This document shows, one piece after another, positions 20,183-41,700 of a DNA stretch of 64,000 nt. This stretch comes from a virus. Location: positions 1 to 64,000 of the IMG/VR virus record IMGVR_UViG_3300047284_000228. One strand, written 5' to 3'. The position numbers and the translations under genes are program-made. Position 1 is the first letter of the stretch. Each line of letters opens with the position of its first letter. Below the pieces are notes generated by a model, which saw only the letters and a list, made by a program, of their open reading frames with translations, was not told the origin of the DNA and did no database searches.

Positions 20183-20487
20183 TTCCATCCTTAACAACCA
20201 ATCCAAAATATATAGAAGATTACAACAGATATGTCAATGAAATTTCTGCTATTACCGACCAATCGTTAAAAGCAGAGCTATTAAATTTACTAGGACGTCT
20301 CAAAGAGCAGGTCGGACATATTGATAAAAATCATCAACAACTTTTGGTTAGTGGTCGTATTCCTACCGAAATAACAGATATTCGAGCTAACATCATATCG
20401 ATCAAAAAGTCCATGGACTCTAAGATCGATATGTGGAAACGTTCTAAGTTTATCGTTAAGCCTGCGCCTCACCCCAGCGAAGAATGA
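20179..20487 (+). CDS. Hypothetical helical protein
   Basis: 102 aa; ATGA coupling; 3' end overlaps the convergent fibre gene. Confidence 0.65.
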   Translation: MIPSLTTNPKYIEDYNRYVNEISAITDQSLKAELLNLLGRLKEQVGHIDKNHQQLLVSGRIPTEITDIRANIISIKKSMDSKIDMWKRSKFIVKPAPHPSEE

Positions 20488-23400: not shown

Positions 23401-26400
23401 CGCCGTGGCTAGGATTGCCTGTTCCTAATTGTACTCCTCCATCAAATGGTCTGTGAGTAAAAAATGCATCGGGTCTAGCATAGATAACCCCAGTAAGACT
23501 TTGATTTGTTACATTGACTGTTCCAGTGGTTCTAGAATAATATCGTATCGATGATGCACTAGGTACTTGTGATATCACGTGAGGTCCAGTGGCCAGTTGA
23601 TGATTTGCTGAAGTTAAAGAAACACTGGCTCCTGTGGCACTATTACCTACTACAGCAAAAATTCCTAGTCCAGAATAATTACCGTAGGCTATTTCTTCCC
23701 AGGTTGAAGACGATGCTAATGTACCGGCTGTCCATGAACCGCTTTCTCCAGTAAATGAATATAGGGCGCTGGTTCCTCCATCTGCTACTACAACAAAATT
23801 ATCATTACCATAGGCAATACTGTTCCAGTTAGCTGAGGAAGGCAATGTAACACTGGTCCATGTGATACCGTTTGTTGATATAGCAGCATTGGTGCTTGCA
23901 CGAGCTACTGCTACGAATCGATTATTACCAAATGTAAGACTCGACCATGTAGTAGATGCTGGTAGAGCTCCGGTGCTGGTCCAGGTTGCACCGTTGTCAG
24001 CTGAGTATGCTGCGGCAGTGCCGCCTGATGCGATTGCAACGAAATATACAGACGTACCAATAAATCCGCCCTCGACATCTGACCATGTTGCCGATGCCGG
24101 CAATGTTGCGGCAGTCCAGGTAGTGCCGTTAGTAGAGTATGCTGCTGCGGTGCCACCGCTGGCCACTGCTACAAAAGTACTATTATAGTAAGCAACGCTA
24201 GCCCATGTCGACGACGACGGTAATGTGGATGCTGTCCAATTTTGGCCGCCATCAGTAGAGTATGCTGCTGCGGTGCCACCACTGGCCACTGCAACAAAAT
24301 AAGTAGTAGCACCTATTGTGCCGGCCGCTACCGATACCCATGTTGTAGAAGAAGGTAAATTACCCCCTGCTGTCCAGGTTTGTCCGTCGATAGACCTAGT
24401 TGTAACGTTAGTTCCTGTCGCTATCGCTACAAATGTTCCTCCAGAAAATGCAACACCTCTCCATGTTAAATTGGCCGATAGTGTCCTAGAAGTTGATGCA
24501 AAATCTGGTGCTGGGTTCGAAGTGATCTGCGTTAAAATAGTCGTACCGGGCAATAGACCATGATTGCTAGGAAAATCAACCTGTATAGTTGGAATAGCGC
24601 CTACATTTAATAATGTGTCTGCGCCTAAACTTCCGGTAATGGCTTCACTGATTGTCAGCGTTGGGTATACAGAAATACTATCGCCATCATACGGTGTGCC
24701 AGTGGCGGTTACAGACATCGATCCTCCACCAACACTCAACACTGTTAATATACAATCGTTTAGGGGACTTGCTCCGTCGAGATCAGTTCCTAATATCCTA
24801 ATGCTATTTCCTGCTTCATAACCGGATCCAGCAGTTGTAGCGATAGCTGTGTAAGCACCTGCGGCTCTAATCACTGAGAAAACAGCGCCTACTCCCACGT
24901 TGGCAATATTTGTAGGAATGACTGGAGAATAAGTAGCATTTCCAGTGGCACCTATAGGACTACCTAAAATCTGATAATCAACGATTACACCCGATGTAAC
25001 TCCGTCAACTTGTATTACTATATCATTGTCCGGACTTACTCCCCCGAGATCAGTACCTGCGAATGTTACTGTATCGCCAGGAGCAAAATTAGATCCTCCG
25101 TTCGAAACGGTGATAGATGAATAAACTCCAGTGCCGCCTACTCTAGTTACATTGATCGCAGCACCGGAACCTAGCGTACTAGTAGTAGAACTTTGAGCGA
25201 CCCCTGTGTAAGAAGCGCCGCCGCTAACGGCAGTTCCTGTAAAATTAAAACTTGTAATGGCACCACCAGAATCGATGTTGCTAATAGTAACAACGATGTC
25301 GTTGGTAGGAGACACTCCTCCTAGATCTGTACCAGCTATCAGTAATCTATCTCCAATAGCGTAATTTTGTCCGTTTAATGTTGAATCTTCTGAATCAGAA
25401 ACAGTATACACACCTGCATTTCTTGACACAGAAAATGTAGCTCCTACACCTATAGGAGAAATGTTAGTGCCTGTGATTCCTGTGTTAGTTGCATCGGCAC
25501 CAATAAGAGTAGATCCTATTGCACCTGTTAAATTAAGAGTAGTTCCCGATAATGAAGTAACAAATAACGCCGAACCACTGCCAGATGACACAGCCATTTG
25601 CTGCTGTATACCAGTCGCATCAACTACGCTAATACTAGTATCTGTGGGCGAGGTAGAATTTTTTATGTTTGTATTAATCGTCGAGGTACCGATAACTCCC
25701 GAAATAGCTGTACCTTGAGCAAATACCGGTGATCCTGTGATAGGAGATCCAGATGTAGGTGCAGTGCCATCGAATGCGATCGTAGTTGATCCGGAAGATG
25801 TTGTAAATTTTGATGTTACTGTTAGACTAGTTCCGTTGCTGAATAAAGAAAACGTAGGCGTGCCTACTGAAGCACCGGTATAGAATCCAGCTTGCCTAAT
25901 TTGTGCAAAGCTGGTGAAAAGACTTTCTCCGTTAGATGTGCCGACTTTAGCAGATGCATAGTAGGTAAAAGACACAGCATTTGGTATACTGTAAATTAAG
26001 AAAGAACCTTCTGCTCTAGCAAATCCGCTGACTGTTGACTGAAGTCCTTTTACTGTAATAGGTTGACCTACGCTAAATCCGTGTGTACCGGTGGTAGTGA
26101 CAGTGATCAACGAAGATCCAAAAAATCCTGTATTTGAGGAAGCATCTGTAGTAATCGCCGAAATACTCAAGTCGGTTCCTGGAATTTCATAGACCGAAGG
26201 GTACATACGAATCAATCCCAGAGCCTGCCACTTAGTAGGTTGTAGTCCGTACTCGAAGTCAGCGTCCAACATGGCCTGGGGTGCGGCAACACGCATACGT
26301 TCAATCGCATCTGTGCCAAATTCCCAAGGGCGAATGGTTTGTACGGAGTCTTCAACAAATATCTGTATATCTGCTGCTGAACTTAATGCTGAAGTATCTT

Positions 26401-27166
26401 CAGATAGATAGATTGTAGTGATCGAATCTGAAGTATGCCACCAACGTGGAAAATCAACATCAGATAATAATTCTCCATTACCACTGCTGCGTCCTTGCTT
26501 GTATTCACAGGTTACTGAGTTATTTGAATCTGCAAAATTATATAAAATATTTCCGTTGCTGGTATCGGTGATTAGCAATAATTCGCTGGGGTCATACTTA
26601 CCGATTATTCTAAATGAACTTACACCAGTCACCTTGGCTGGCATAGCTGATAGACCGTTGGTAATCACAGAGCTAAAAATATTCCACAATGTTGTGTTTC
26701 TCGATGACGCTCCAGTTTCTGCATTCTGGCCAGTGATCTTGACCTGAGAAACTACATTTCCATAAGAAGGTGTAACTGTGGTATTGGTAAAAATAAAATT
26801 GTTAACAAGATCTCTAAGATAAGCGATACCTGTAGTTTCGGGGCTGACGTCTCCTCGAATCTGGGGTTCTCCGTCAATCCAGAAATAATCTGCAGTCTGT
26901 CTACACTTTACATTGCCGCCGTATCTAAGATCGTGTAAAATAGCATCGATATAATAACCTACGTCTCTGGTACACTTTTGAGATGCATATGTGTAACCTA
27001 CGTATGGTGCTACTTCATTAGTGATTTGATTGTTAATAAAGGCAACTACTTGTGCTTGTAAAAACGCCTTATTAGCACTGAGTAGGGTCACTGCATTGGG
27101 ATACAGATTGCTATCTTTACTAATGCCCGGTTCAAATACATATTTTTTTAACTGTTTCTTTGCCAT
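20456..27166 (-). CDS. Giant virion fibre/structural protein with BNR-like repeats (2236 aa)
   Basis: Ser/Thr/Gly-rich; repeated FVAVA..AAYS.DG..W blades; GTDLGG..P.ND repeats; CTRDVG..IDA...D..YGGN motif. Confidence 0.8.
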   Translation of the reverse strand: MAKKQLKKYVFEPGISKDSNLYPNAVTLLSANKAFLQAQVVAFINNQITNEVAPYVGYTYASQKCTRDVGYYIDAILHDLRYGGNVKCRQTADYFWIDGEPQIRGDVSPETTGIAYLRDLVNNFIFTNTTVTPSYGNVVSQVKITGQNAETGASSRNTTLWNIFSSVITNGLSAMPAKVTGVSSFRIIGKYDPSELLLITDTSNGNILYNFADSNNSVTCEYKQGRSSGNGELLSDVDFPRWWHTSDSITTIYLSEDTSALSSAADIQIFVEDSVQTIRPWEFGTDAIERMRVAAPQAMLDADFEYGLQPTKWQALGLIRMYPSVYEIPGTDLSISAITTDASSNTGFFGSSLITVTTTGTHGFSVGQPITVKGLQSTVSGFARAEGSFLIYSIPNAVSFTYYASAKVGTSNGESLFTSFAQIRQAGFYTGASVGTPTFSLFSNGTSLTVTSKFTTSSGSTTIAFDGTAPTSGSPITGSPVFAQGTAISGVIGTSTINTNIKNSTSPTDTSISVVDATGIQQQMAVSSGSGSALFVTSLSGTTLNLTGAIGSTLIGADATNTGITGTNISPIGVGATFSVSRNAGVYTVSDSEDSTLNGQNYAIGDRLLIAGTDLGGVSPTNDIVVTISNIDSGGAITSFNFTGTAVSGGASYTGVAQSSTTSTLGSGAAINVTRVGGTGVYSSITVSNGGSNFAPGDTVTFAGTDLGGVSPDNDIVIQVDGVTSGVIVDYQILGSPIGATGNATYSPVIPTNIANVGVGAVFSVIRAAGAYTAIATTAGSGYEAGNSIRILGTDLDGASPLNDCILTVLSVGGGSMSVTATGTPYDGDSISVYPTLTISEAITGSLGADTLLNVGAIPTIQVDFPSNHGLLPGTTILTQITSNPAPDFASTSRTLSANLTWRGVAFSGGTFVAIATGTNVTTRSIDGQTWTAGGNLPSSTTWVSVAAGTIGATTYFVAVASGGTAAAYSTDGGQNWTASTLPSSSTWASVAYYNSTFVAVASGGTAAAYSTNGTTWTAATLPASATWSDVEGGFIGTSVYFVAIASGGTAAAYSADNGATWTSTGALPASTTWSSLTFGNNRFVAVARASTNAAISTNGITWTSVTLPSSANWNSIAYGNDNFVVVADGGTSALYSFTGESGSWTAGTLASSSTWEEIAYGNYSGLGIFAVVGNSATGASVSLTSANHQLATGPHVISQVPSASSIRYYSRTTGTVNVTNQSLTGVIYARPDAFFTHRPFDGGVQLGTGNPSHGAQAVRQSKKYVRYQSGKGIMYTTGGLFAPSYGLASATASAVTVNSLITFTTDDTDHGLQAGAEIEIIGMTSFEYNGDYTVESIVDARRFQVRSQVVLSSTTGTLGPDAKVVLKHWHGSSVKIGAFDEQNGLFYQYDGQEMSLVKRSSTNQLTGTVSITTESNLVTGTGTRFQDQLKVGDKIVVRGMSHIVTGITSQTSLTMAPDWRGANSIIGARMAITEDLYIPQSEWNLDPIDGTGPSGYNVLPWRMQMLGMQYSWYAAGFIEWMLRGADGKFVFLHRLRNSNVNTEAYMRTANLPVRYEVENRSAVSKLSAAVNSTQNTLPLTDASRFPSNGIVYIDNEMISYSGKSGNTLTNCTRSAAMNAFTAGQNRTVTGGAASAHEVNAGVQLVSCTATPTISHWGSALLTDGMFDNDRGYIFSYAATGLSISLAKQTAFMIRLAPSVSNALVGDLGERDLLNRAQLLLNEIAVTADTGTGAIVIEGILNPKNYPTNPTNISWGGLSNAAAGGQPSFAQIALGGSINWGGVPASTSTATVQGALTTTITARAFSTVTNTISAVSNPSGLSGYSNAVSASRTDFVITNSSYDTLLSTTALRVGDVLSMSSATTLSSVNVSGSTGQFTCNSTLLAVGMTVTLTGGKSTGSGSIFGYSSPTTYRISATNGSTTFTLTTLAGGTIFTQNGSADGTFTLNNFIGSGRSITSITRSYLGSSFTRIVMNQVGNNTSVAASNVSIVVTNSISTSYANAISTARNDFLVTNTDWNNAFAAVGDSLSLASFIVAGQTITGFTTSYATVSGVAYTRIVMSTNGNNVSSSGANQTVTIQAGSTAASYSNTNYLFFTSASWNASGASVGTRIATSYTQFPAGTSVAAVTSRRLGSTTIQRVTFTQSSNTAITAAGTVTFQFGDPQYALPGEQVFSFVANPGNTTSLSLTELKELTTTAIGGRGAFPNGPDVLAINVYKVTGTATPGSLILRWGEAQA
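24131..24299. repeat. Intragenic direct repeat (46 nt, 2 mismatches)
   Basis: 24131-24176 versus 24254-24299, both encoding FVAVASGGTAAAYST. Confidence 0.8.
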
Positions 27167-28324: not shown

Positions 28325-28348
28325 AAAAAAGCCCTTTCGGGCTTTTTT
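28325..28348. terminator. Bidirectional terminator after the carbamoyltransferase
   Basis: AAAAAAGCCC-TTTC-GGGCTTTTTT (GAAA loop on the minus strand). Confidence 0.85.
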
Positions 28349-30176
28349 AATTATTGGGTACGTGAATTAGTTTTCCGTATTCTGGCAGGTACAAATATTC
28401 AATATCTGAATTTTGTAGGGTCCAGATAGCATCATCTAGAGTTTCTACTAGAGGTTCGCCTCCCAGATTAAAGCTGGTATTGAACAGGATAGGAACTCCT
28501 GTTTCATCTTTAAATGCTTTAATCAGATCATAGTAATGCTTATTCTGTTCCTGCGTAACAGTCTGTATTCTGCAGGTATGATCTTCGTGGATAATTGAAG
28601 GAATCTTTTCTTCGATGCCGGGTCGACAATTTACAGCATACATCATAAACGGGCTGTCTTTCATACCACGTAGGTCGAACCACTCGTGTACATCGTCCTG
28701 TAAAATACTACCGGCAAATGGACGGAAATATTCGCGACGTTTAACTTCGTTGACAAAGTCCTTGCCATCAGGGAAAGTCGGATCAAATAATACCGAACGG
28801 TTACCTAGTGCCCTAGGTCCATTTTCAGATCGTCCCTGAAAAATAGTAACAATATTTTTTTCACGTAGGAGTTTGACAATATCTTTATGAGTCGCATCGG
28901 ACACCGTGGCTGCGTTTACTTTAGCTACTTTTTCCGCGATCTCATCGGATGTGTAATGATATTCGGGACCTAGATAAAGTGTACCGTAGCTGCGAATAGT
29001 AGAATCGTTGTACATTCCGTGCCAGAACATCAGTGCTGCTCCCATGGCGGTTCCTGCATCATTTGAAATGGGTTCTACATATATTTCAATGCCGCTGTCT
29101 TTTAATTGTTCTAGATAGTGATAATTTGCCACACAGTTTAATCCGTATCCTCCACTGATCGTTACTTTGTTCTTACCACTTTTCTCCACAGCATATTTGA
29201 TCAAACGAACTACCTGTTCTTGCGTTTGTGTCTGAACAGCATAGGCTAAATCTCTACGACTTTCCAGAAGTGTAAGATCATCTTCGGCATTTTCTGGTTC
29301 TTGTTCTAGAGCATCAAACAAGTTCATATTAATGACACTGCTCATTGGGTACTTAGGAACTATTAAGTTTCTGTTCGATAGTGGCGTCTTGCCTGACGAA
29401 TCAAACAAAGGAGGAATTTTTTCATTGGGTTTTCCGTAGGGGAATAGGCCCATGGTTTTTCCTGCTTCGATCGCCGAAAAGCCGCAGTATTCTGTAACTC
29501 CTTCATAGACCTTAACAATACCAGAGCGATCAGTTAACCATGCTTCATGTGTTTCACCAGATTCACCGATCGCGCTAGAATCAAATTTAGGTATGAAAGC
29601 AGATCCGATTGGATCTTTGGTTCCGTAATGTTTGTATAAGGTTTTAAAATCTGCTGGGTACTTACAGTCAACTATGGATTCTGTTTCCCAAAACCAAAGT
29701 TGGTTTCCGTTATATTCCATCGGGAAAAATGTGCCGGCGCCGTCTACGATCAACGAAACTGCTTCTTCAAAGCCACTACGATAAAATGCACAGGCAGTAT
29801 GTAGTTTATGATGCATATAACTCATGTCGATGACCTGAGGATGCTTATGCAGATTAGGCACCTTCCGTTCGATCAATCCTAGCTTACGAGCCATACCAGT
29901 ATACATATCGTCACCGGTATAGTCAATCTTTCCGGCTGTTTCGTGTAAGGGCTGTGTGTGGGCTACGACCAAATAATCTAATTTATCTGTGTACTCTAAA
30001 ATCTTAACCATGCTGGCTAGCGGACCGCCATCATATTTCTGTCGAGTCAGTCTTTCTTCTTCGATACTAAAAACGATTTCTCCGTCTTTGAGTAGACACA
30101 CACCTGCATTATGTCCACGGGCGATACCGGCTATCCACACAGATTTTTTTTCTTTTTTAATAGATTTCAGTGTCAT
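28347..30176 (-). CDS. O-carbamoyltransferase (NodU/CmcH/TobZ family)
   Basis: EEERLTR.K, HHxxH, VDGAG, GKTMGL..YG, SGG..LNCVAN, DAG, GRSENGPRALGNRS, KRREYFRPFA, RIQTV, NTSFN..GEPLV. Confidence 0.92.
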   Translation of the reverse strand: MTLKSIKKEKKSVWIAGIARGHNAGVCLLKDGEIVFSIEEERLTRQKYDGGPLASMVKILEYTDKLDYLVVAHTQPLHETAGKIDYTGDDMYTGMARKLGLIERKVPNLHKHPQVIDMSYMHHKLHTACAFYRSGFEEAVSLIVDGAGTFFPMEYNGNQLWFWETESIVDCKYPADFKTLYKHYGTKDPIGSAFIPKFDSSAIGESGETHEAWLTDRSGIVKVYEGVTEYCGFSAIEAGKTMGLFPYGKPNEKIPPLFDSSGKTPLSNRNLIVPKYPMSSVINMNLFDALEQEPENAEDDLTLLESRRDLAYAVQTQTQEQVVRLIKYAVEKSGKNKVTISGGYGLNCVANYHYLEQLKDSGIEIYVEPISNDAGTAMGAALMFWHGMYNDSTIRSYGTLYLGPEYHYTSDEIAEKVAKVNAATVSDATHKDIVKLLREKNIVTIFQGRSENGPRALGNRSVLFDPTFPDGKDFVNEVKRREYFRPFAGSILQDDVHEWFDLRGMKDSPFMMYAVNCRPGIEEKIPSIIHEDHTCRIQTVTQEQNKHYYDLIKAFKDETGVPILFNTSFNLGGEPLVETLDDAIWTLQNSDIEYLYLPEYGKLIHVPNN

Positions 30177-31108
30177 TCTTTTTTTCCTAAAACATAGTTA
30201 ACAATATGAGTCGTTATTTCCTCGCTCATAGTCATGATTTTTTCATTTTTTCTGTCAATTCTTTCGTCCATAGTAATTCTGATAGGGCTGTACTCTCGAT
30301 CCACTTCTCCCATATCTAACACATCAACACCTTCTGTGTCTGGATAACTGACATTAATGGGATAGGTAGCTCCTGTTACCACAGTTGCTTGAGTTCCGAC
30401 TGAATAAGCTAGATGTTGACCTAGACTATCACATCCTAGGAAATGATCTGAATATTTTATTATCGCTGCCCAGACTCTTACATTAACATTTTCAGGTACG
30501 GCTACTTCGTCTTTAAGTTTAGCATCAGTTAGATCAACCTTAAATTCAGACATCATTACTATAGCATAACCGTGATCTTGTAATTTTTTGATAATCTGTT
30601 TAACATCTTTTAACTCAAAACTACGACCTGTTTTGTCGATCAAAGTTTCGTCGATATATTCAATTCCTCTACCGAAAGGTTGAAAAACTGCCAGTTTGTC
30701 TTTTTTCAGCTTGTTTTTCACTTCTCCGACAACTTGTCTACCATGGAGTAATTCGTCTTTGGACAGATACACAGTAGGCTTTGGTAGGCTTCTAATGCCC
30801 TTGTCGTTCATTTGGATGTCAAATGCCTGTGCTATCGAACATTTTTGATTGTAATATTCCCAGATCCTATACGGCTCTAAGGTAATTACGTCCATATCCT
30901 TTAACTTATCTTGGAACAAATTTTTGTGCCAGATATCATAGACTCTATGATCTAATTTAGGATGCCCTTTATATACATCTGTTCCGCCTTCGCAGACTAT
31001 GATAAAATCTTTATCTCCAGATTCTTCTTCGTATTTTTCAAAAGCAGGAATTGAACAAATCATTCTGCCAGCACCGCCGTTTATAAAAAACGCTTTAGAT
31101 CTTGTCAT
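30173..31108 (-). CDS. Glycosyltransferase, GT-B fold (GT9-like)
   Basis: N-terminal GGAGR, FQPFG, C-terminal FLGCDSLGQHLA (compare GT9 DSG..H.A); ATGA coupling to the carbamoyltransferase. Confidence 0.7.
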   Translation of the reverse strand: MTRSKAFFINGGAGRMICSIPAFEKYEEESGDKDFIIVCEGGTDVYKGHPKLDHRVYDIWHKNLFQDKLKDMDVITLEPYRIWEYYNQKCSIAQAFDIQMNDKGIRSLPKPTVYLSKDELLHGRQVVGEVKNKLKKDKLAVFQPFGRGIEYIDETLIDKTGRSFELKDVKQIIKKLQDHGYAIVMMSEFKVDLTDAKLKDEVAVPENVNVRVWAAIIKYSDHFLGCDSLGQHLAYSVGTQATVVTGATYPINVSYPDTEGVDVLDMGEVDREYSPIRITMDERIDRKNEKIMTMSEEITTHIVNYVLGKKE

Positions 31109-31190: not shown

Positions 31191-31832
31191 TCAGCTTAGG
31201 TCTGGATATGTAGGAAATGGAATCTTCCAATGGTCTACACCGGATAAATTAGCTTTGATTGATTCTAGGCTAGCTTTATACGATTGTAGATTTGCTAGTT
31301 GCTGATCCGAATACTGAGATGTTCCTCGTTCGATCATTTTGCCAATTTCTTTAATTTGATTATCGACACCTTCCCAGAATTCCGATTTAGTGATCGGATG
31401 TGTTGTAAAAGGTGGTTTTACAAATAAATTTGAACCCTTATCGTATTTCATGGTGTTCACAGCATGGAATTGCTCAATAATTCCATGACCGTCTAACAAT
31501 TGATAAAGATACTTCTGGCCTGTAGGAAGAGTTTCTTCGTAATCTTGAACTTCACCGTGTGAATACGCATGTGTTAGGTATGCTGCTTCCCATGGATGTG
31601 TATCTGAGTCAAGAATAAAAAAGTCAAATATAGGACCGTCATCAACGATAGTGGCTTCTAAGGCTTCTCTATCATCGCCCGATCTTTCTACATTCAGGAC
31701 TGTTCCATCTTTTTCTAGCATCCTTACTACGTGATATCTTGGACCATTGTATTCACATTGGACTGTTTTGTTAAGACGAGAACTTTGCTTATATGGCTCG
31801 TCTGGCAATGTATGTATAAATGTTTTTCTCAT
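31191..31832 (-). CDS. Putative tail-fibre assembly chaperone-like protein
   Basis: C-terminal LQSYKASLESI...WKIPFPTYP resembles the Y...L......(W/F)P..P end of fibre assembly proteins; follows the Cys-rich genes. Confidence 0.5.
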   Translation of the reverse strand: MRKTFIHTLPDEPYKQSSRLNKTVQCEYNGPRYHVVRMLEKDGTVLNVERSGDDREALEATIVDDGPIFDFFILDSDTHPWEAAYLTHAYSHGEVQDYEETLPTGQKYLYQLLDGHGIIEQFHAVNTMKYDKGSNLFVKPPFTTHPITKSEFWEGVDNQIKEIGKMIERGTSQYSDQQLANLQSYKASLESIKANLSGVDHWKIPFPTYPDLS

Positions 31833-31835
31833 TTT

Positions 31836-32837
31836 TTACCTCGGTATAAAATTAATTCTTACTGCGCCATAGCCGCCTCTCCAACCAAAGTTGCAGTGGT
31901 CACCGCATGGTGTTGGCATAGTTCCGCCTGTGCCTGTTGGGAAGAACGGTACACATGCCTGCATCTGATAACATCCACAGGCTTTAGTTGATACCCAGCA
32001 ATGGGTAAGTGGGTGACCGCGTTGTGGGCTTCTGTTCAATGCATTTAGCATAAATGTGAACTGATGATAACCAGATCCGTTCCATTGTGAATAATCACTA
32101 TCTGTCTCAAATCCATGCGTCACAACAGCGCCATCACATGAAAATAGTCCCGGAGGAATAGCCACGTGTGCTTGAGTAGAGCATGGACAATTACTATAAC
32201 AGGTCCAGAATGTAGCACAGCTGAATCCGCCGCGCTTGTTAATATCACCGCCCCAAGATTCTGCACAGCATGATCCTGTTCCTGGGCCATAGTTACATAC
32301 GATACCACAGGTACCGTTTGAATAATTAGTTACACAGAAGTTACCGCTTTGGAAACAGCAGAATACTGCTGCTGATCCCGGAGCACAATACGCTGTACCT
32401 CCACGACCGCCCTGGGCACACATACATCCGTTTACGGCATCACCTGTGTATTGATTTCTACCGGCCCAGCATACCTGCGTCGGTTCGGAACAGCCTTTAA
32501 AACAGAATGTTTCTGGATTACCGCAGCTAATACCTATTTGTCCGCAGATCATGCATCCGTTGGTTACACAAATACATTTTCTAGACCATGCTCCTGGGTT
32601 TCCTGGAAGACCCACTCCGCAGCAACGGATACTTGGACTTGAACCGCCAGCACCCCAGATATCGATAATCACTCGACCTGTACCAGGGGCTGTCCAACAA
32701 AATATGTTACTAGGATGGAAGTTAATACCAGCAGATCCGGCAGGTGCAAAAGTCCATACCTGCCCTTTTTCTAGATCTGTTTCGTCAGTGTCGATCTGAT
32801 TTAATTTGTTTTCAACTAATGTTCTTAAGGTAGCCAT
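31836..32837 (-). CDS. Gly/Cys-rich protein C (333 aa, about 32 Cys)
   Basis: IIDIWGAGG, PGNPGAW, GCMCAQGG, GGDIN, CGCY, GWRGGYGAVRI; start moved to 32837 to match its paralogues. Confidence 0.8.
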   Translation of the reverse strand: MATLRTLVENKLNQIDTDETDLEKGQVWTFAPAGSAGINFHPSNIFCWTAPGTGRVIIDIWGAGGSSPSIRCCGVGLPGNPGAWSRKCICVTNGCMICGQIGISCGNPETFCFKGCSEPTQVCWAGRNQYTGDAVNGCMCAQGGRGGTAYCAPGSAAVFCCFQSGNFCVTNYSNGTCGIVCNYGPGTGSCCAESWGGDINKRGGFSCATFWTCYSNCPCSTQAHVAIPPGLFSCDGAVVTHGFETDSDYSQWNGSGYHQFTFMLNALNRSPQRGHPLTHCWVSTKACGCYQMQACVPFFPTGTGGTMPTPCGDHCNFGWRGGYGAVRINFIPR

Positions 32838-32838
32838 A

Positions 32839-34056
32839 TTAGTACGTATTGCCTCCATCTGTTGGTACATATCTGATTCTTACCATACCCATGCCACCTC
32901 GGCCGCCATGATCTCGCACGTCGCCGCAGACATGCGTAGGGTATCCGCCCATGCCCGGAGGACTGAATGGTACACAACCCCACATTTCGTAACATCCGCA
33001 GGCTCTAGCACCGTTCCAGCACCAGTGTGTTGGCATGTGACTTGGTTGTCTAGAAAGTGTTTGTACTCCGGCTAACATCGCTGTAACAGCACCGCCCGAA
33101 GTAGCACCGGACGGACTATCATGTTCGTGCTGATAGCTGAATACGCCGCCCTCTGTTGAATACATCATAGGAGGTGTTGATTGATTGTATTGATATATAC
33201 ATCCCGGATTATTTTGTACACAATCTAAGAAACGTGAACAGGATAAGGTACCGCAGCAGTTCATGTCGCCACCAAATCCGCATCTAAATCCAGTAGCATT
33301 ATATTGGTTACTTTGATCTGAACAGATATTGCAGACCATGGTGCAACTCCACCAGCTACAGCTTTCTTGAGTTTTAAATCTACGCTGACAGTGTTTTACG
33401 TTACCCCAGCAGTGGAAGTGATTTCTGTTACCGTCAACGCACATAAACCAACCGGATTTACCGCCTTGTACACACATACATCCTCGACTAGCACCTGCAT
33501 CACAGCACACACAGCAAGATCCTGCACCACACATTGTGGCATTAGAACCTCTTGGAGCCCAATACTTACCGTCTGCATGGCAGTTCTGTATATTTGCTGT
33601 GGTTTCTCCGTTGCCCCAGCCCCATGGATTGTTTCCTTTCCATGTGCTCTGAGAAACTCTTGAGTTTGCACCGCCCCAGAAAAGGGCGTTAGGTGCGCAG
33701 CCAAACCAGCATAGCTGTACAGGCTCTGGATCGCCTCTACTGTATGCAGGAGTATCTCCGCAGGCTCTACCTATAGAACCACAGATATAGTTTGACGGGC
33801 ACACACAGATGCATTTTCTAGTATATGCTCCGGGATTACTAGGCAAACTAGACCCGCAGCAGCAACCGCGGCCGGAAGATCCGCCAGGACCCCACATTTC
33901 AATAATAACCTTACCGCATCCTGGTGGTTTCCAGCAAAAACCGTTACACAACGGAGTATATTCATTGCCGTCACCATAGACCCAGATACGACCTTTTTCT
34001 AGTTGGTCTTCCCAGCCTAGTTCTCGATTTCCTAAAAGTTGTGTTAACAATGCCAT
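32839..34056 (-). CDS. Gly/Cys-rich protein B (405 aa, about 39 Cys)
   Basis: IIEMWGPGG, CCC, PSNPGAY, GCMCVQGG, GGDMN, CGCY, GGRGGMGMVRI. Confidence 0.8.
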   Translation of the reverse strand: MALLTQLLGNRELGWEDQLEKGRIWVYGDGNEYTPLCNGFCWKPPGCGKVIIEMWGPGGSSGRGCCCGSSLPSNPGAYTRKCICVCPSNYICGSIGRACGDTPAYSRGDPEPVQLCWFGCAPNALFWGGANSRVSQSTWKGNNPWGWGNGETTANIQNCHADGKYWAPRGSNATMCGAGSCCVCCDAGASRGCMCVQGGKSGWFMCVDGNRNHFHCWGNVKHCQRRFKTQESCSWWSCTMVCNICSDQSNQYNATGFRCGFGGDMNCCGTLSCSRFLDCVQNNPGCIYQYNQSTPPMMYSTEGGVFSYQHEHDSPSGATSGGAVTAMLAGVQTLSRQPSHMPTHWCWNGARACGCYEMWGCVPFSPPGMGGYPTHVCGDVRDHGGRGGMGMVRIRYVPTDGGNTY

Positions 34057-34057
34057 T

Positions 34058-35089
34058 TTAAAATTCTCCGTATCTTACATGCGACATTTCTTCGTTGACA
34101 TTGGTACCACGATAAGTGACTCTGATAGCACCCTGGCCGCCTCGACGTCCGGAATCTCTAACACCTGGACATGGAGTCGCTTGGGTAGCACCCCAGCCAT
34201 ACGGCATGTAGTTCATACATGAATGATGTTCATAACATGTACAGAATCTATTACCGTTCCAACAGTTATACCACGGCATACCGCCTGTTGGAGATTTAGA
34301 GTGTGCGTTAATTAAGTATCCAACTGATGCCATACCAGCACCTGCCCATTGATTACCGCCGTGATCATTTTCGATCGGGAACGCTACCCAGCCGCCGTCT
34401 TCAGAGAACTGTCCTGGAGGGTGAGCAACATATTGAATAAACTGGCATGTACACATTGGCTGACATCCGCGGAATTCAACTTTACCATAGACACCACACT
34501 TGTTAATATCGCCACCCCAACCGCAGGCCCACCAATCGCCTGAACGTACATTACATATAATACCGCAGCCGTTACAGATCAAAGTGTTGCAATATCCCAT
34601 AGCAGCAAAACAACAGTAGGGACTATCATATGATGATCCCCAGCAGCAGGTTCTGCCACCTAGACCGCCCTGGGCACACATACATCCCGATGTATTACCG
34701 CATAAATCTCTAGCTCGTTCCCAGACTAGACAAGAACCTTCCGATAAGCAAGGGTTAGAAAACGCTGTACCAGGACCATTACAAGGAACTCCTGGTCGGC
34801 CAAATATTACAGAGCAGGGCCAAACTGCGATAGTTTTTTTGGTATATCCCCCACTATTGCCCGGCATACCAACCGCACAGCAGCAGTTACATGCCGCTGT
34901 CCCTCCGGCACCCCACATTTCGATCGTAGCAGTTCCGCAGCCCGGCGAGTTCCAACACCATTGGAATTCCGTTCTGATACAGGCATACATCGCTGATACA
35001 CCCGATACAGAATAAACCTTACCTTTCGGTAAGTTTTCTTGGAACGCTATGACCTCCCTTGTGGAAAGAAGATCAGAAAGTTTTGCCAT
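34058..35089 (-). CDS. Gly/Cys-rich protein A (343 aa, about 32 Cys)
   Basis: TIEMWGAGG, CCC, PGNSGGY, GCMCAQGG, GGDIN, CTCY, GRRGGQGAIRV. Confidence 0.8.
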   Translation of the reverse strand: MAKLSDLLSTREVIAFQENLPKGKVYSVSGVSAMYACIRTEFQWCWNSPGCGTATIEMWGAGGTAACNCCCAVGMPGNSGGYTKKTIAVWPCSVIFGRPGVPCNGPGTAFSNPCLSEGSCLVWERARDLCGNTSGCMCAQGGLGGRTCCWGSSYDSPYCCFAAMGYCNTLICNGCGIICNVRSGDWWACGWGGDINKCGVYGKVEFRGCQPMCTCQFIQYVAHPPGQFSEDGGWVAFPIENDHGGNQWAGAGMASVGYLINAHSKSPTGGMPWYNCWNGNRFCTCYEHHSCMNYMPYGWGATQATPCPGVRDSGRRGGQGAIRVTYRGTNVNEEMSHVRYGEF

Positions 35090-35102: not shown

Positions 35103-35429
35103 TTAAGGTCCAATAAACACCCAACCATAGGTGTCGCCACTGAAAATCATCGTGACCGCAGCATTATTAAGATTTAAAACTAAATCCTCTGATAAGTTTT
35201 GAATCTTTTTTCCGTTTCTACCAATGGTTACATTGTTAGTGGAAAAAATACCTGCTACGTCTATGATTTGTATAGTGTCGCCTGTAGTTGGACTTGCTGG
35301 TAGCGTAAGTGTAAAGGCACCTGAGGTTGCATCAGCAAAAATTCTTTCATTTGACGAAAGTGTTGTTGCTGAAGTTAATGTCCTATTTACGACTGAGTCG
35401 GTACCAAACGATGTTACCTGTCTTCCCAT
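35103..35429 (-). CDS. Stand-alone tail-fibre domain (gp34 N-terminal-repeat-like)
   Basis: GAFTLTLPASP..GD.I.IID..G.F.TNN.TI.RNG..I....DL.L.....GW pattern typical of myovirus fibres. Confidence 0.65.
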   Translation of the reverse strand: MGRQVTSFGTDSVVNRTLTSATTLSSNERIFADATSGAFTLTLPASPTTGDTIQIIDVAGIFSTNNVTIGRNGKKIQNLSEDLVLNLNNAAVTMIFSGDTYGWVFIGP

Positions 35430-35446: not shown

Positions 35447-35767
35447 TTATACTGTTGAAGTTTCTATGCCGAATGCAGTAACGCTGATGTTAGCGGTATT
35501 AGCATAGACAACTAAAAGTTTTCCTGCGTTCATCATGATGCCTGTTCTTTCTAGGACACCATTTGGACCAATCTGTGCATCATATTCAATGTATTCTGCG
35601 TTGGTTGGCGATGCGGCTGCTGCTAAGGCTATTCTCACACTAGCTACTGTAGATCCTCTGTTACAAACAGATACTGACATGACTGTGAAAGTTGTTGCCG
35701 GAACGGTATAAACGGTCGTGTTCGTAGCTGCTGATAAAGCTGCTTGACCTAAGATTCCTGTTGCCAT
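35447..35767 (-). CDS. Small beta-rich virion protein
   Basis: TVYTVP, VCN..., G..L.V pattern shared with 50037-50369 and 53191-53559. Confidence 0.7.
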   Translation of the reverse strand: MATGILGQAALSAATNTTVYTVPATTFTVMSVSVCNRGSTVASVRIALAAAASPTNAEYIEYDAQIGPNGVLERTGIMMNAGKLLVVYANTANISVTAFGIETSTV

Positions 35768-35781
35768 TTATTATTTCTCCG

Positions 35782-38700
35782 TTAATTGTTTAGTAAAAAG
35801 TAGTTCAATACAAGTGCATCGCCAGCAATTCCGCCTTTGAAGTTTACCTTTGTATTTATGTTAATCTGTACATTTGTAGTTGTGGCTATTGTCTGTCCTG
35901 CGATGTAAACAACGCCTGCAGTGAGGGTATTTACGTTCAAGCTAGATCCACCGCCACCAATTTGGCTAGTAATGTACGCTTTAATAGCTCGCTGTGTCGG
36001 TACTACTGTGTCCGAATCTTGTGTAAAGAACGGATCTGTCGAGAATTCAGAAATTGTAGCTCCTGAACCACCCAATGCAACAGAACCTAGCGATAGTTCG
36101 TTCAATCCTGCGATGTTAAACGCATCAGCATTCAATGTTGCAACACCAGTACTTTGTTCAACGTTGAACAATCCGCCAACTCGGAAGTTACCGTCTTGGT
36201 CAGTTGATGTGTAGAACACACGACCACCGTTGCTCTGCTTGTACTCTTGAGCAGGAATAGGATCAGACAAAGGTAATCCGGGGTAATTTGAATTAATAAA
36301 ATCACCAGTACCGATATCTAATAGATCGTGTCCTGTTAAACGAACCTGAGAATAACGTCTACGGATAGTAGTTGCTGCTTCGTGATTTGGAGCTTCGGCT
36401 GCACCTATAGCTGGACTTATTTGCAGAGTAGCATTATAAGTTCCGTCGGCATTAGGTAATAGATTAGTTACATTAACTAGTCTATACCAAACATCGTCGA
36501 TGCCCGCAAGTTGTACGTTTGAACCGGCTTTGGGTATTCCGCTGAGATTCTTAAATGCCACAAACGCACTTGTTTGATAGTTGTCAGCATAACCGTCACC
36601 TGTGATTTCTGCTGCGGCTGCGGTATAGCTGGTTCCTCTATTGGTAAACATTGGCTGAGCTATAGCACCGTTACCTAAGCGTACTTCAGTGGTAGCATCT
36701 GCTCCGGTGTTGTTAGGATCTGTAATAGTCATAGTCGGAGCAGATACGTATCCTGATCCCGGTTCTTGTATCCATATTTCAGAGATCTTGTTATCTGAAA
36801 CATATGCTCTAGCTCTAGTTTTAGTACCTTGGCGTATGTTTTGTACGCTAGGACTGTTAGCACCAAGTACGACCCATCTTGGAGTTCCTTGATAATTTCC
36901 CAGTGCCGATGCTATGAAATCTCTGCTGGCTAAGAACGGAGCAGTGCCGCTGGCTGTGGTCAATACAAAGTTAGAACCTCCCTTGGTAGAAGAGATTGTG
37001 AATTGTGTTGAGCTAGCAATACTGGTCACATAGTAATAAACCTCAGGAACTATTCCGCCAATAGTTGCACCGGTAAACCTAACTCTGTCATTTAATTTCA
37101 AATTAGTTGTGCTGGATGTTGTTAGGTAATTTGTATTCAATACAAAATCAGCATACGAACCTATAGTGGTTCCTGTGGCTATGGATATCAGTTTAGTTCC
37201 GCCGTAGGCAGCTTCAGCCCAGTTTCTAGTCGCGGCCTGAGCAGGTCCTTCTACCCATGTAATACCGTCTGCAGAATAAGCTGTTCTATCACTATTATAG
37301 GCAAATGCTGTATAACCACCACCGCCGTAGACTACTTTGTTCCAACGAGCTGCTGCTCCCGGAAGGGTAGCGGCTGTCCAGGTTGTTCCGTTAGTAGAAT
37401 AAGCAGCTTTTGTAGTAGTGTTGGTTGTTCCGCCTGCGACTGCTACGAATTTTCCGTCGCCGAATGTAACGTCGGCCCAGAAATCTGAACTAGGTAGTGT
37501 ATTACCAGATGTCCATGTTACTCCACCGTTAGTAGAATATGATGATACTTGGCTACCTGTTGAATATCCTGCTACGGTCACGAAATAATCAACACCACTG
37601 ATCTGACCGTATGATATGGCACTCATCTCTGATGATCCGGATGTAACTGCTGCGTTGGTCCATGATGTACCGTTAGTCGAGTAGTTAATTGCTGAGGAAT
37701 CTCCTCTGATTGCAATATATCTACCTGCACCGTATACCATGTCTTTCCAGTATGCATTAGCTGTTAACGCTAATGTTTGGCCTGTCCAGGTTGCACCGTC
37801 TGCTGAGTATGCAATGTTTCTTGTTCCGCCACTACCGCCTATTATTGCTACATATTGGTTACTACCATTATAGGCTACAGCGGTATATTCAAAGCTGCCG
37901 CTCACTGTTGGCAAGGTTCCGTTAGTCCAAGAAGTTCCGTTGGTACTTGTTGCATATAGACCCGAAGATCCGTCGTAGCCCACTGCTAAGAATCTAGTAC
38001 CGTCATATAAAACACTGGTCCAAGTTCCTGAAGTTAGAGTAGATGTTTCTGCATAAGTACCAGAAATTGTGTCTTTGGCCGTTGCAGTTACATTCAACGA
38101 CGCTGTCGATGCATCGCGTAGTGTCCATACTAGGCCATCTGTAGAACTAGCTGCTGCATCGCCTAGGCTAGTAACATAGAATAAACCCTGTCCGTAGCCG
38201 ATCGAACTCCACTCATAGTTAGCTGGCAAATTGCTCTTAGTCCAGGAAATTCCGTCTAAGGAATATGCAGCCATTGATGAACTATCTGCTATGGCTACGA
38301 ATCTACCATTTCCATAGGTTATGTCTACCCAATTGCTTTCGCTCGAATCATCATTGCTAGGCAATGTTCCTACAGTCCATGCTACTCCACTGGTAGAGTA
38401 AGCAAAACTGTTTGAGAAGTTTCCTTCTACAACTACGAATCTAGTTCCGCCATAGGCTATGGCTTTAGCTCCGGATGCTAGTGTTGTAGTGCTCCAGGTT
38501 GATCCTCCGTTAGTTGATACTGCTCTATATGTGGATGAAGAATCACTTTCTGCAATAGCTACAAAAGAACCATTACCATATGCTATATCGCACCAATCTG
38601 CCACTTCTCCTAGATTGGCTGCGGTCCAATTAATGCCGTCAGTTGAATAAGCAGCAGTAGAAGTTGCTCTGGCCACAGCCACATAGTAGCTAACGTTACT

Positions 38701-41700
38701 TGACATCCCGTAGGCAATAGCACTCCATTGGTTATTATCTTCGCCGCCACCCGAACTTGTTGCGGTTGGCATAGTCATTGCTGTCCAAGTTATTCCATCT
38801 AAACTATAAGCCGCGGCAGTGGTTCCGCTAGCAACGGCTACATATTTAGGTGTCACGGCTGTTCCGGATGGAGTCACTGATGCTATAGATCCGCTAGGAG
38901 AATTAATAGTATCTACAGTTATGGTCAAATCATTAGCAGGACTTGTACCTCCTAGAGAAGTACCTGCAATAGTTAAGGTATTACCTGCTGTGTATAAAAC
39001 ACCCGGAGTACTGATTGACACTGTGTAACTGCCTTTTCTTCTAACAACGTTAAATGCTGCTAGACTTCCAGAACCTCCAGTTGCAGATAATCCTGTGTAA
39101 CTTGCATAACCGTCGCCGTATGCTACATCAGTCCAATTATTCGCTGCTGTAATATTTGAGATAGTCTTAGTATAAGGAACATCAGTAAACGATAGTCTCG
39201 GAGTGATCGTATAAGATGTGGTCACATCTAACGCTGCTTCGATAGCAGTTCCCGGAACCACATGATCCCAGCCAGCAGTTCCTGTTGATTCTTTATAAAC
39301 AGTTGCGATCTTAGAACCCGAATTATATGTGTTAATATAACCGTACTGTCCTGCGCCTGTTCCTGAGGTTAGATAGATGCTCATTCCCACATATGCAGCA
39401 CTAGTAGCAGTATCAGCCGCAGCCAATGTGATCTGTGTTGTGTTACCCGACTGTGCTAGATTGGTGGCGGTGATATATCCTGTACCGCCAGTACCCGAAC
39501 TATCGCCCGGATCTGTCAAGCGTACTTGGAATACAGCACCATCTCTAAATTCATTAGCCACTGTTGCTACACCTGCGCCTGCACCCGATGTTGTAAATGT
39601 TGCTGAAGAATAATCCGAACCTGCATTACCGAATTCGTAGATTAAGATATCATCGCCGTCTGTTATAACATTTCTAACATCTGCTTCTTCTGCACGATTA
39701 TTGAGTTGACCTGTGATCGGAACTTCGTTGATATCTATACCTTCAGATACGGAACCAAAGTCACCGTAAGAGTTGTTACCGTTGGTAGCACGAATCTTAC
39801 CGCCGTTTTCAGCTAGATAACCGATGTGATTATAATATGTGAACACAGAAACAAGTTCTGCACGGCCTAGATTAGTAATCCATGCACCAATACCGTTGCT
39901 CAATACCTGTGTAAAGTCATTGGAAACGATTGAATCAACTCCGCCATTGTGCAGGCTTCCGTCAATTTTCTGTCCAGTACAGCCGGTTCCGAATGTTGTT
40001 ACGTTTTGTACATAAGTCGAACGACTTGTTACCCAAACATTCGAGTCGTTAGGACCGTATCCTGGATCGAGACTGACATAAGCGCCGGCCAACGGACGCT
40101 TTGTACCAAACTCGTTGACCACGGTTAATCCATCTGCATCACCTGCACCGGCTGTATTTCCGTCTGATGTACCATCTAGTCCTAACAGTGTATGATTTCT
40201 TATACCGCAACCATTGCGTACATAGAACATATCTTCAAGTTTAGAACCAGTTAGGGCACTTCTATAGAAACGAGCAGCATATACAGAATAATAGTTTCCT
40301 GTATACATCAGATCGGAAGAGATAGCCTTGACATAATTTCTTACATCATTTTGACATCTTGCTGTATCGTAATTCCATGTAACGGTCATTGATCCCGAAG
40401 CTGCAGATAAATCAACGGCTGTGCCACCTAGTGTTAGACTGACTTTAAATGTTGTTGCGGTTAATCCGCTAGCTAGTATGTAGTAGGTAGTTGTTGTATT
40501 AACACCACCAAAAGTTGTACCGCTAAATTTAACAGTGTCGCCTGCAACCATCCATGTTTGTGATCCACAGGTAAATGTGTCTGTACCAGCGTCTGCAGAT
40601 GTTACTGTTGCTTTAAATGTTTCACTGGCATAGGCTGTTGCTTCAGCTGCTAAAAAATTTGAATTCAGCTCTAAAATCTTACCGCCATTGATTTGATCTA
40701 GATCAGTTGTGGGTGTAACACGACCAGTGATGATTGGTCTTGTTCCTGTATTCACATAAGAAATAATATCATCCCATAATAGTCCAGACAATACACTTGC
40801 ACCGCTGGCTGCAATTCGTTTAGCCTTAGCTGATATAAAATCTAAAATTGCCTGTGTTGCGGCTAGTTGATTGCTTACAACTTCTAGTGCAGATGAAGTC
40901 CCTCTTCTGTAGGCCATTCCTGCTTTGATAGATGCAAAATTAGAACCAAACATTAGATCGTAGCCCAGAGCATCTACGATATATCCAACATCTCGAGAAC
41001 AGGTAGTGGTATTAAAGTCAAGCGTTGGATACTCTCTCTTAATATATTGTACAGCATCTGTTTGAATTTCTGCTCTAGCAGTGTTTACTGCTGTTCTAGC
41101 TGTTACTAAAGCAGTGGCTACCCAGGATGTGGCAGGTGATATCGATGTTGGTAAGGTACCGTCGGCAGTGATTGTGTTGATAATTTCCTGAACACGCTCT
41201 TCAGCAAAGTTTTTAGCTGAAGTATTACCTGCTGTACCGCTGACATCTTGTGTTTCTGCATTACCTGCAGAAACTGTTACCGAAGCTTCTGTAATGACCT
41301 GACCAACTACTGTTTTAAGTCTTGCATATGCGGCCAGTGTTTCTTCTTTTTCGCCGTTGCCAAACGTGGCTACACCGTAGCTATAATATGCATCAGCGGC
41401 GATTCTTGTTTGTGTATTGCCACCGTAGGTTAAATCATAACGAATAGCATCTAAAACATATCCAACATCTCTAGCGCAGGCCGCTGCATCGTAGGTAAAC
41501 GATGTGGTAAACGGTGCTATGTTACCTGCTACCTGTACTGCGATCCATGCTGTGATTTCAGCTTTGATAAAGTTAGTGTTGGCAAGAATCTGTGCTCTAG
41601 CATTGTCATAGGTAGATGTTGCACCTGTAGCATTGCCTGTAGATGCGTATGCAGTATCAGTTAATGAAGAACCCCAGTTAGTAGGATTTGGAATTACAAA

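Follow-up and report, generated by a model that had tools for sequence, protein, structure and literature searches.

For most T4-like phages of marine and fresh waters, including cyanophages, the receptor-binding proteins have yet to be identified. We analysed a 64,000-nucleotide stretch of phage DNA (the window), which is part of the 110.8-kb IMG/VR record IMGVR_UViG_3300047284_000228, a fragment with an estimated completeness of 32%. The window belongs to an uncultured freshwater T4-like giant myovirus with UvsX, gp32, TerL, sheath, tube, portal and major capsid protein. It contains three adjacent genes for related cysteine-rich proteins, here named A, B and C. Their tenfold excess of conserved cysteine (Cys) is very unusual for proteins that fold in the cytoplasm, and raises the question of what the trio does, why it comprises three members and which chemical state its Cys residues adopt. 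We find that the trio is a Cys-rich, uncharacterised variant of a known fibre-tip fold and probably forms the receptor-binding tip of this phage group. Its family is a strong candidate for the receptor-binding proteins of aquatic T4-like phages.

Predicted fold of the Cys-rich proteins

The structure of protein A was predicted with AlphaFold2 from a 68-sequence alignment. The model had a mean pLDDT (predicted local distance difference test) of 81.5 and a pTM (predicted template modelling score) of 0.81; the N-terminal 20 residues, which are conserved, were modelled at a pLDDT of 41–49. An exhaustive structural comparison of the model with 48,161 PDB representatives (VIA-align) returned the tail fibre protein gp24 of cyanophage Pam3 as the top match (7ypx_A; Z 15.3, root-mean-square deviation 5.2, 204 residues). 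It was followed by the tail tip of mycobacteriophage Bxb1 (9d93_Qa; Z 11.5) and by four entries of the ALK/LTK glycine-rich domain (Z 7.9–8.7), with a clear step down to TNF and C1q family proteins (Z 4–5). Foldseek gave the same leading matches (E 7.5e-5). Among the predicted viral structures of BFVD, 152 matched the model of A at E ≤ 0.001. The best match, at E 1.8e-15, is a protein of Synechococcus phage S-CAM3 that has not been characterised; many of the others come from phages and giant viruses and bear labels such as 'Glycine-rich domain-containing protein', tail fibre or collagen-like. In the ESM Atlas, the nearest named cluster is one with the Pfam family PF21722 (Gly_rich_2).

Because the fold matches phage fibre and tail-tip structures, we consider A, B and C likely to be receptor-binding-type proteins of the tail-fibre tip, in which a TNF-like β-sandwich is combined with glycine-rich strands. 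A preliminary description of this DNA, made from its letters, had also proposed a fibre tip, namely a hetero-oligomeric one that binds metal ions or is locked by disulfides after lysis. The assignment to a fibre tip gains support from the fold, from flanking genes with tail-fibre PHROG matches and from the syntenic position of the trio behind the gene for a 2784-aa (amino acid) fibre protein. The glycine motifs occur in short forms only (WGAGG, QGGxGG, GGDxN, RGGxG), with Cys at places where canonical GGGGxGG-type domains hold more glycine.

Three results weigh against this identification. Pfam searches assigned A to no family at E ≤ 1 and returned only unrelated, sub-threshold matches for B and C; a profile of the family (hmmsearch) found no match at E ≤ 10 among all PDB sequences; and literature searches retrieved no virion proteomics or electron cryo-microscopy (cryoEM) data on any family member. 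With neither a Pfam family nor a PDB sequence match, homology to known structures rests on the fold. None of A, B and C reached PF21722 at E ≤ 1, let alone its gathering threshold, and two of 68 relatives touched it weakly (best E 6.4e-4).

Three tandem paralogues with coupled start sites

The three genes follow each other on the minus strand (Table 1). B starts one base past the stop codon of A (TAA-A-ATG). The longest open reading frame (ORF) for C spans 31836–32870 (344 aa). Its Met12, which is in register with Met1 of A and B in the alignment, comes one base after the stop codon of B (TAA-T-ATG), so that C probably begins at this residue. At both junctions GGAG or GGAGG is found a few bases 5′ of the start, GGAGG in the case of C. 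As read from the DNA, the junctions have the layout of translationally coupled genes.

Counts from the ORFs reproduced exactly the Cys numbers of the preliminary description (32/343, 39/405 and 32/333). For the 36 other ORFs of at least 150 aa in the window, the mean is 1.06% Cys and the maximum 2.35%. As only ~3.6 Cys would be expected in 343 aa, chance can be excluded. Glycine accounts for 14.5–15.6% of A, B and C, and each protein has 10–17 tryptophans (Trp).

In a three-way alignment the proteins share 34–37% pairwise identity. All nine motifs that had been listed beforehand were recovered in it: L(E/P)KG, CWxxPGxG, I(E/D)(M/I)WG(A/P)GG, CC(C), PxNxG, GCMCxQGG, GGD(I/M)N, CW..CxCY..C and GxRGGxGx(V/I)R. 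A short N-terminal peptide, MAxLxxLLxxR, is common to A, B and C; the N-termini are hydrophilic, in keeping with the earlier reading that signal peptides are absent. B alone carries an insertion of ~65 aa after the position of A residue 127 (window 33480–33680; B residues ~127–195), which is rich in Trp, Gly and Asn and contains extra Cys. The insertion varies in length among the orthologues at position 2 (394–428 aa).

The T4 late-promoter word TATAAATA occurs 0 times in the window, with 5.5 occurrences expected from shuffled sequences. Given this absence from the whole window, the late promoters of this phage group must differ, and the word is uninformative on expression timing here.

Table 1. 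Positions of the Cys-rich genes and of neighbouring genes in the window.
Feature	Position	Strand	Length, composition and matches
Cys-rich paralogue A (position 1)	34058–35089	minus	343 aa, 32 Cys (9.33%); phrog_4205, E 1.1e-14, residues 1–327
Cys-rich paralogue B (position 2)	32839–34056	minus	405 aa, 39 Cys (9.63%); phrog_4205, E 1.1e-4, residues 41–85 only (N-terminal motif)
Cys-rich paralogue C (position 3)	31836–32837	minus	333 aa, 32 Cys; phrog_4205, E 1e-14, residues 12–342 of the long ORF
108-aa protein, stand-alone tail-fibre domain, candidate adaptor	35103–35429	minus	16 PHROGs, ten of them tail, tail fibre or tail spike; best E 5.7e-20
106-aa protein, stand-alone tail-fibre domain, candidate adaptor	35447–35767	minus	phrog_11338 and phrog_693, 'tail fiber protein'
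2784-aa giant fibre protein	35782–44136	minus	directly upstream of the 106-aa gene; orthologues upstream of the module in most loci
1819-aa giant fibre-like ORF	44195–49654	minus	
2236-aa giant fibre-like ORF	20456–27166	minus	
213-aa protein	31191–31832	minus	directly downstream of C; phrog_9740, unknown function
311-aa conserved neighbour	30173–31108	minus	phrog_8954; no Pfam match
609-aa NodU/CmcH-type carbamoyltransferase	28347–30176	minus	PF16861, E 1.3e-57; PF02543, E 7.3e-30; phrog_1601

A widespread family with a conserved cysteine framework

A word-indexed search of 5.8 billion proteins yielded 98 homologues, all unnamed, and a profile search of 1.84 billion cluster representatives (clusters at 50% identity) gave 242 matches at E ≤ 0.001. 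A pattern scan of IMG/VR confirmed 246 relatives. Nearly all full-length members are stand-alone proteins of 310–370 aa, and family members carry 5.6–12.3% Cys. Judged by sequence, the trio is a discrete Cys-rich branch, PHROG 4205 (unknown function), which is widespread and uncharacterised; our literature searches found no description of a Cys-rich, glycine-rich fibre protein. Among phage records, tblastn with A (50,697 records) returned nothing at E 1e-5, and megablast with the 9-kb region gave no match. A search with protein C at E ≤ 1 produced only weak N-terminal matches, which led to the cultured Synechococcus phage S-CAM1.

The preliminary description had made its proposal depend in part on the conservation of Cys positions among homologues. 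They are conserved: 17 columns hold Cys in at least 87–90% of 265–346 distinct members. In A these framework residues are 45, 69, 70, 71, 103, 136, 138, 149, 160, 175, 179, 215, 276, 283, 285, 291 and 307, with 159 close behind. The 17–18 framework columns show no conserved His and no CxxC spacing, and do not conform to classical zinc knuckles.

Column entropy across 68 homologues was lowest around IE-WGAGG, CCCG-GLPGN-GAY and CAQGG, and highest at A residues 30–41 and 217–262 and in the C-terminal tail; residues 216–275 of A are entirely free of Cys. The earlier statement that the sequence between the anchors is highly variable is partly right, these three stretches being the most variable. 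Together with the insertion of B, the variable stretches are candidate receptor-contacting parts.

Gene neighbourhood of the trio

For a survey of synteny, 80 loci were kept out of the 246 confirmed IMG/VR relatives. In ~60 of them the genes follow the order fibre, 106 aa, 108 aa, Cys-rich genes, 213 aa, 311 aa, carbamoyltransferase. The 108-aa gene lies directly upstream of the trio in ~60 loci, and the 311-aa gene and the carbamoyltransferase adjoin the Cys-rich genes in ~55. The same module is present in S-CAM1, where the Cys-rich copies are annotated as adjacent 'hypothetical proteins' (SXBG_00226, 00225 and 00224; HQ634177) of 311, 278 and 299 aa with 11.6, 11.2 and 8.4% Cys. In a phylogenetic tree they group together on long branches.

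The S-CAM1 locus (L081:8731-13295) also has genes for a heptose-phosphate kinase/adenylyltransferase and an ADP-heptose epimerase just beyond the carbamoyltransferase. The company of the 311-aa, carbamoyltransferase and heptose genes hints at a sugar-tailoring function. In one lineage (L060, L067, L072, L073 and L075) the 213-aa gene is tandemly duplicated and a second 311-aa-like gene follows the carbamoyltransferase.

One heterotrimer or three tips

Three tandem Cys-rich ORFs are present in 51 of the 80 loci. In most of the remaining loci, either the end of the contig truncates the array, or the lineage keeps two copies in the module and has its third at another site of that contig. A profile search gave a count of exactly three for each of two complete relatives (353 kb, 98% complete; 364 kb, 100% complete), for three more records and for the record of the window itself. 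In the split lineage, represented by the locus pairs L041/L042, L043/L054 and L066/L047 (contigs 3300001589_000007, 3300027833_000013 and 3300000928_001590), ~21 kb separates the third copy from the other two; it lies immediately upstream of a pair of fibre genes, and the sum is again three. A maximum-likelihood tree of 87 proteins placed positions 1, 2 and 3 in separate, well-supported clades within each major phage group; the position labels required 8 changes on this tree, compared with a mean of 46 after shuffling. The position clades and the constant count of three imply that the triplication is old and that each copy has been retained.

Pam3 gp24 forms a trimer, and the gene for its trimeric chaperone, gp25, comes next (PMC9608196). 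Three conserved paralogues could represent a heterotrimeric version of this normally homotrimeric tip. Given the conserved three copies, the coupled junctions and the shared N-terminal peptide, we see an even chance that the trio assembles as a 1:1:1 heterotrimer from coupled genes expressed in equal amounts, in place of the homotrimer of Pam3.

Several observations weigh against a heterotrimer. The three giant fibre ORFs in the window (2784, 1819 and 2236 aa), which share one block, equal the paralogues in number, which would fit one tip per fibre, and the solitary copy of the lineages with two plus one adjoins genes like that of the 1819-aa fibre. In ALK the fold is not trimeric, and T2/S16 gp38 is a monomeric cap.

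We regard as less likely, though well worth considering, an alternative in which each paralogue forms a tip of its own, either as a homotrimer or as a gp38-like monomeric cap, on a different fibre. It would give the phage three receptor specificities. Pam3 gp24 as a homotrimer (PMC9608196) provides a precedent, and the solitary copy in the split lineages lies directly upstream of the 1819-aa-like fibre genes, apart from the other two. Three separate tips are harder to reconcile with the maintenance of exactly three copies in the same order over long divergence and with their tight translational coupling. Moreover, one N-terminal docking peptide is common to all three proteins, and a single 213-aa chaperone-like gene and a single adaptor pair accompany the trio, here and in most loci.

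Chemistry of the cysteines

Two classes of Cys emerge when homologues are compared: a near-fixed framework of 17–18 residues, and a dozen or more per protein that turn over singly. Turnover was assessed in 68 phylogenetically independent pairs of 85–99.5% identity. Of 16 Cys changes, 14 affected columns that do not belong to the framework, and Cys usually alternated with a small or polar residue. More divergent pairs had odd and even numbers of Cys changes about equally often. Single gain or loss with no bias towards even numbers indicates that the variable Cys are not obligate partners in intramolecular disulfides; pairs may still exist within the fixed core. Reciprocal-best pairs of co-occurring Cys (A 37–130, 86–88, 189–198, 122–203 and 136–138) were not used for disulfide assignment, being confounded by paralogue class.

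Full disulfide pairing is contradicted by three counts. Cys totals are odd in 190 and even in 156 of 346 proteins; the sums over trios are odd in 20 and even in 16 of 36 cases, the window's trio holding 103; and 15 of the 68 near-identical pairs differ in Cys, 14 of them at exactly one column.

For the framework Cys, we lean slightly towards disulfide bracing that forms spontaneously in oxic water. Disulfides are preferred over metal because the framework has no CxxC or conserved His, because related systems have virion disulfides and because of the 5 Å spacing of glycine strands. The glycine motifs of Pam3 gp24 are packed at a distance of ~5 Å and lead to a variable distal tip that binds the receptor (PMC9608196). 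We infer that this spacing may permit cystine bridges. Pam3 fibres are tied to the baseplate by disulfides, which were confirmed in the virion by mass spectrometry, and dithiothreitol detaches the fibres (PMC9942802). Large disulfide networks have been reported in phages Milano (PMC10811340) and Jabs (PMC13419713).

Neither DsbA nor thioredoxin was found in the two complete relatives, in which the controls worked. Each encodes one small glutaredoxin far from the fibre genes, likely tied to nucleotide reduction. The preliminary description had seen no thiol oxidoreductase in the window; this holds for the families searched, and the 110-kb record has no thioredoxin or glutaredoxin match. A search for Erv1/ALR sulfhydryl oxidases was uninformative, the control genomes being silent. 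With no DsbA or thioredoxin and only one distant, small glutaredoxin in the complete relatives, oxidation would be spontaneous after lysis.

Metal binding is an unlikely alternative to disulfides. The framework Cys (CCC, CxC, CC, CxxxC) would then bind Zn, Cu, Fe or Cd in metal–thiolate sites or clusters and so make the tip rigid. Such sites could form in the reducing cytoplasm in which the proteins fold, and the two complete relatives, with no DsbA or thioredoxin found, fit this picture. Unbiased Cys parity and single Cys turnover would also be better tolerated by thiolate clusters than by fixed disulfide pairs. Metallothionein clusters typically contain CxC and CC motifs. Metallothioneins, however, contain ~30% Cys and few aromatic residues and are unfolded without metal, whereas the trio has 9.3–9.6% Cys, 10–17 Trp per protein and a confidently predicted β-rich fold. 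The lack of a conserved His or CxxC knuckle among the framework positions and the virion disulfides documented in Pam3, Milano and Jabs (PMC9942802, PMC10811340, PMC13419713) likewise speak against metal.

Less probable still is a tip that acts as a redox- or metal-triggered switch, in which a lattice knotted covalently by three-way CCC nodes and bearing exchangeable surface thiols is unlocked, or binds covalently, at the host envelope. A tip of this kind would be locked in oxic water until released by thiol–disulfide exchange or reduction, or would attach covalently to a host surface protein. Either event would commit the phage to infection, and the neighbouring tailoring enzymes might modify the tip further.

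The 213-aa neighbour

Wherever a locus reaches beyond the trio's last gene, the 213-aa gene is found behind the trio, and its product is the least conserved of the module (24–70% identity). Its AlphaFold2 model (pLDDT 95.5) shows a β-rich N-terminal domain followed by two long C-terminal helices, an outline that resembles Pam3 gp25 and TfaMu as described (PMC9608196). Against kinship with these chaperones, fold searches with Foldseek and VIA gave only generic helical hairpins, the best being the lid helix of Hsp70 (Z 8.0). Neither Foldseek nor the exhaustive VIA comparison found a PDB match for the N-terminal β domain (residues 1–140), and the 213-aa protein did not match gp25 or TfaMu. As the fold searches gave no specific match, it is position and architecture that suggest a chaperone role. 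The 213-aa protein may represent an undescribed chaperone or adaptor fold.

A proposed model of the fibre tip

We propose that A, B and C are virion tips in which glycine-rich, polyglycine-II-like strands emerge from a TNF-like β-sandwich. Equal synthesis from the coupled genes would provide the subunits of a 1:1:1 heterotrimeric head. This head would dock through the short N-terminal peptide (MAxLxxLLxxR) onto the fibre or onto the 106/108-aa adaptors, and the downstream 213-aa protein would serve as its assembly chaperone. The packed lattice of glycine strands would be cross-braced by disulfides of the framework Cys, among them the invariant CCC that follows the first glycine motif; these bonds would arise spontaneously on contact of the particle with oxic water. 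The variable Cys would be surface thiols or looser links between chains. We are less sure of these four steps, namely heterotrimer, docking, chaperone and bracing, than of the core assignment to the fibre tip. Once the Cys chemistry is settled, it should become clear by what means aquatic phages stabilise or trigger the organelles with which they adsorb.

A role outside the virion, in which the trio would act as cytoplasmic helpers (a thiol or metal buffer, or a scaffold for the giant fibres) or as substrates or partners of the 311-aa enzyme and the carbamoyltransferase, draws on the conserved synteny with these two putative tailoring enzymes and on the fact that we found no proteomic evidence placing the trio in particles, but is very improbable given that all of the top structural matches are proteins of the distal fibre or of the tail tip and that the genes lie inside the fibre block, co-oriented with the fibre genes.

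Comparison with known systems

The closest structural counterpart of the trio is Pam3 gp24, with its neighbour gp25 (PDB 7YPX, 7YFW). Both combine a TNF-like sandwich with a lattice of glycine-rich strands, according to the model of A, and both are small, stand-alone fibre proteins of aquatic myoviruses whose genes are immediately followed by a gene for a β-plus-helical protein. They differ in sequence, with only 16% identity and no sequence-level match, and in composition: gp24 has very few Cys, compared with ~32 per chain in the trio. The trio has shorter glycine runs in which Cys takes the place of some glycines, CCC following the first motif, and its N-terminal segment measures ~20 aa, in place of the 60-aa helical shaft of gp24. 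Furthermore, Pam3 has a single gp24 gene where the window has three diverged paralogues, and the 213-aa protein is unmatched to gp25 by fold.

The Gly_rich_2 family PF21722, found in phages and giant viruses, resembles the trio in its predicted fold, in a β-strand followed by WG-GG and in a C-terminal G-RGG-G-hRh; the high Cys content is specific to the branch of the trio. The TG domain of ALK/LTK (PDB 7NX3, 7LS0, 7LIR) belongs to the same overall fold class, with ~150 residues aligned. This domain, from the ectodomain of an animal receptor tyrosine kinase, contains long polyglycine-II helices and does not form a trimer; neither its context nor its function is related to those of the trio.

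The fibre-tip adhesin gp38 of the T2/S16 type (PDB 6F45, as cited in PMC9608196) is similar in that its glycine motifs bear hypervariable receptor-binding loops at the end of T4-like long fibres, and dissimilar in having another proximal domain and in being a monomeric cap. It is missing from the Foldseek and VIA match lists and may nevertheless be related.

The most direct relatives are the members of PHROG 4205 and the three copies of S-CAM1, which belong to the same family and to the same gene module. The S-CAM1 proteins are shorter (278–311 aa) and uncharacterised, and this phage, with Synechococcus WH7803, offers a culture that is suited to testing the Cys chemistry.

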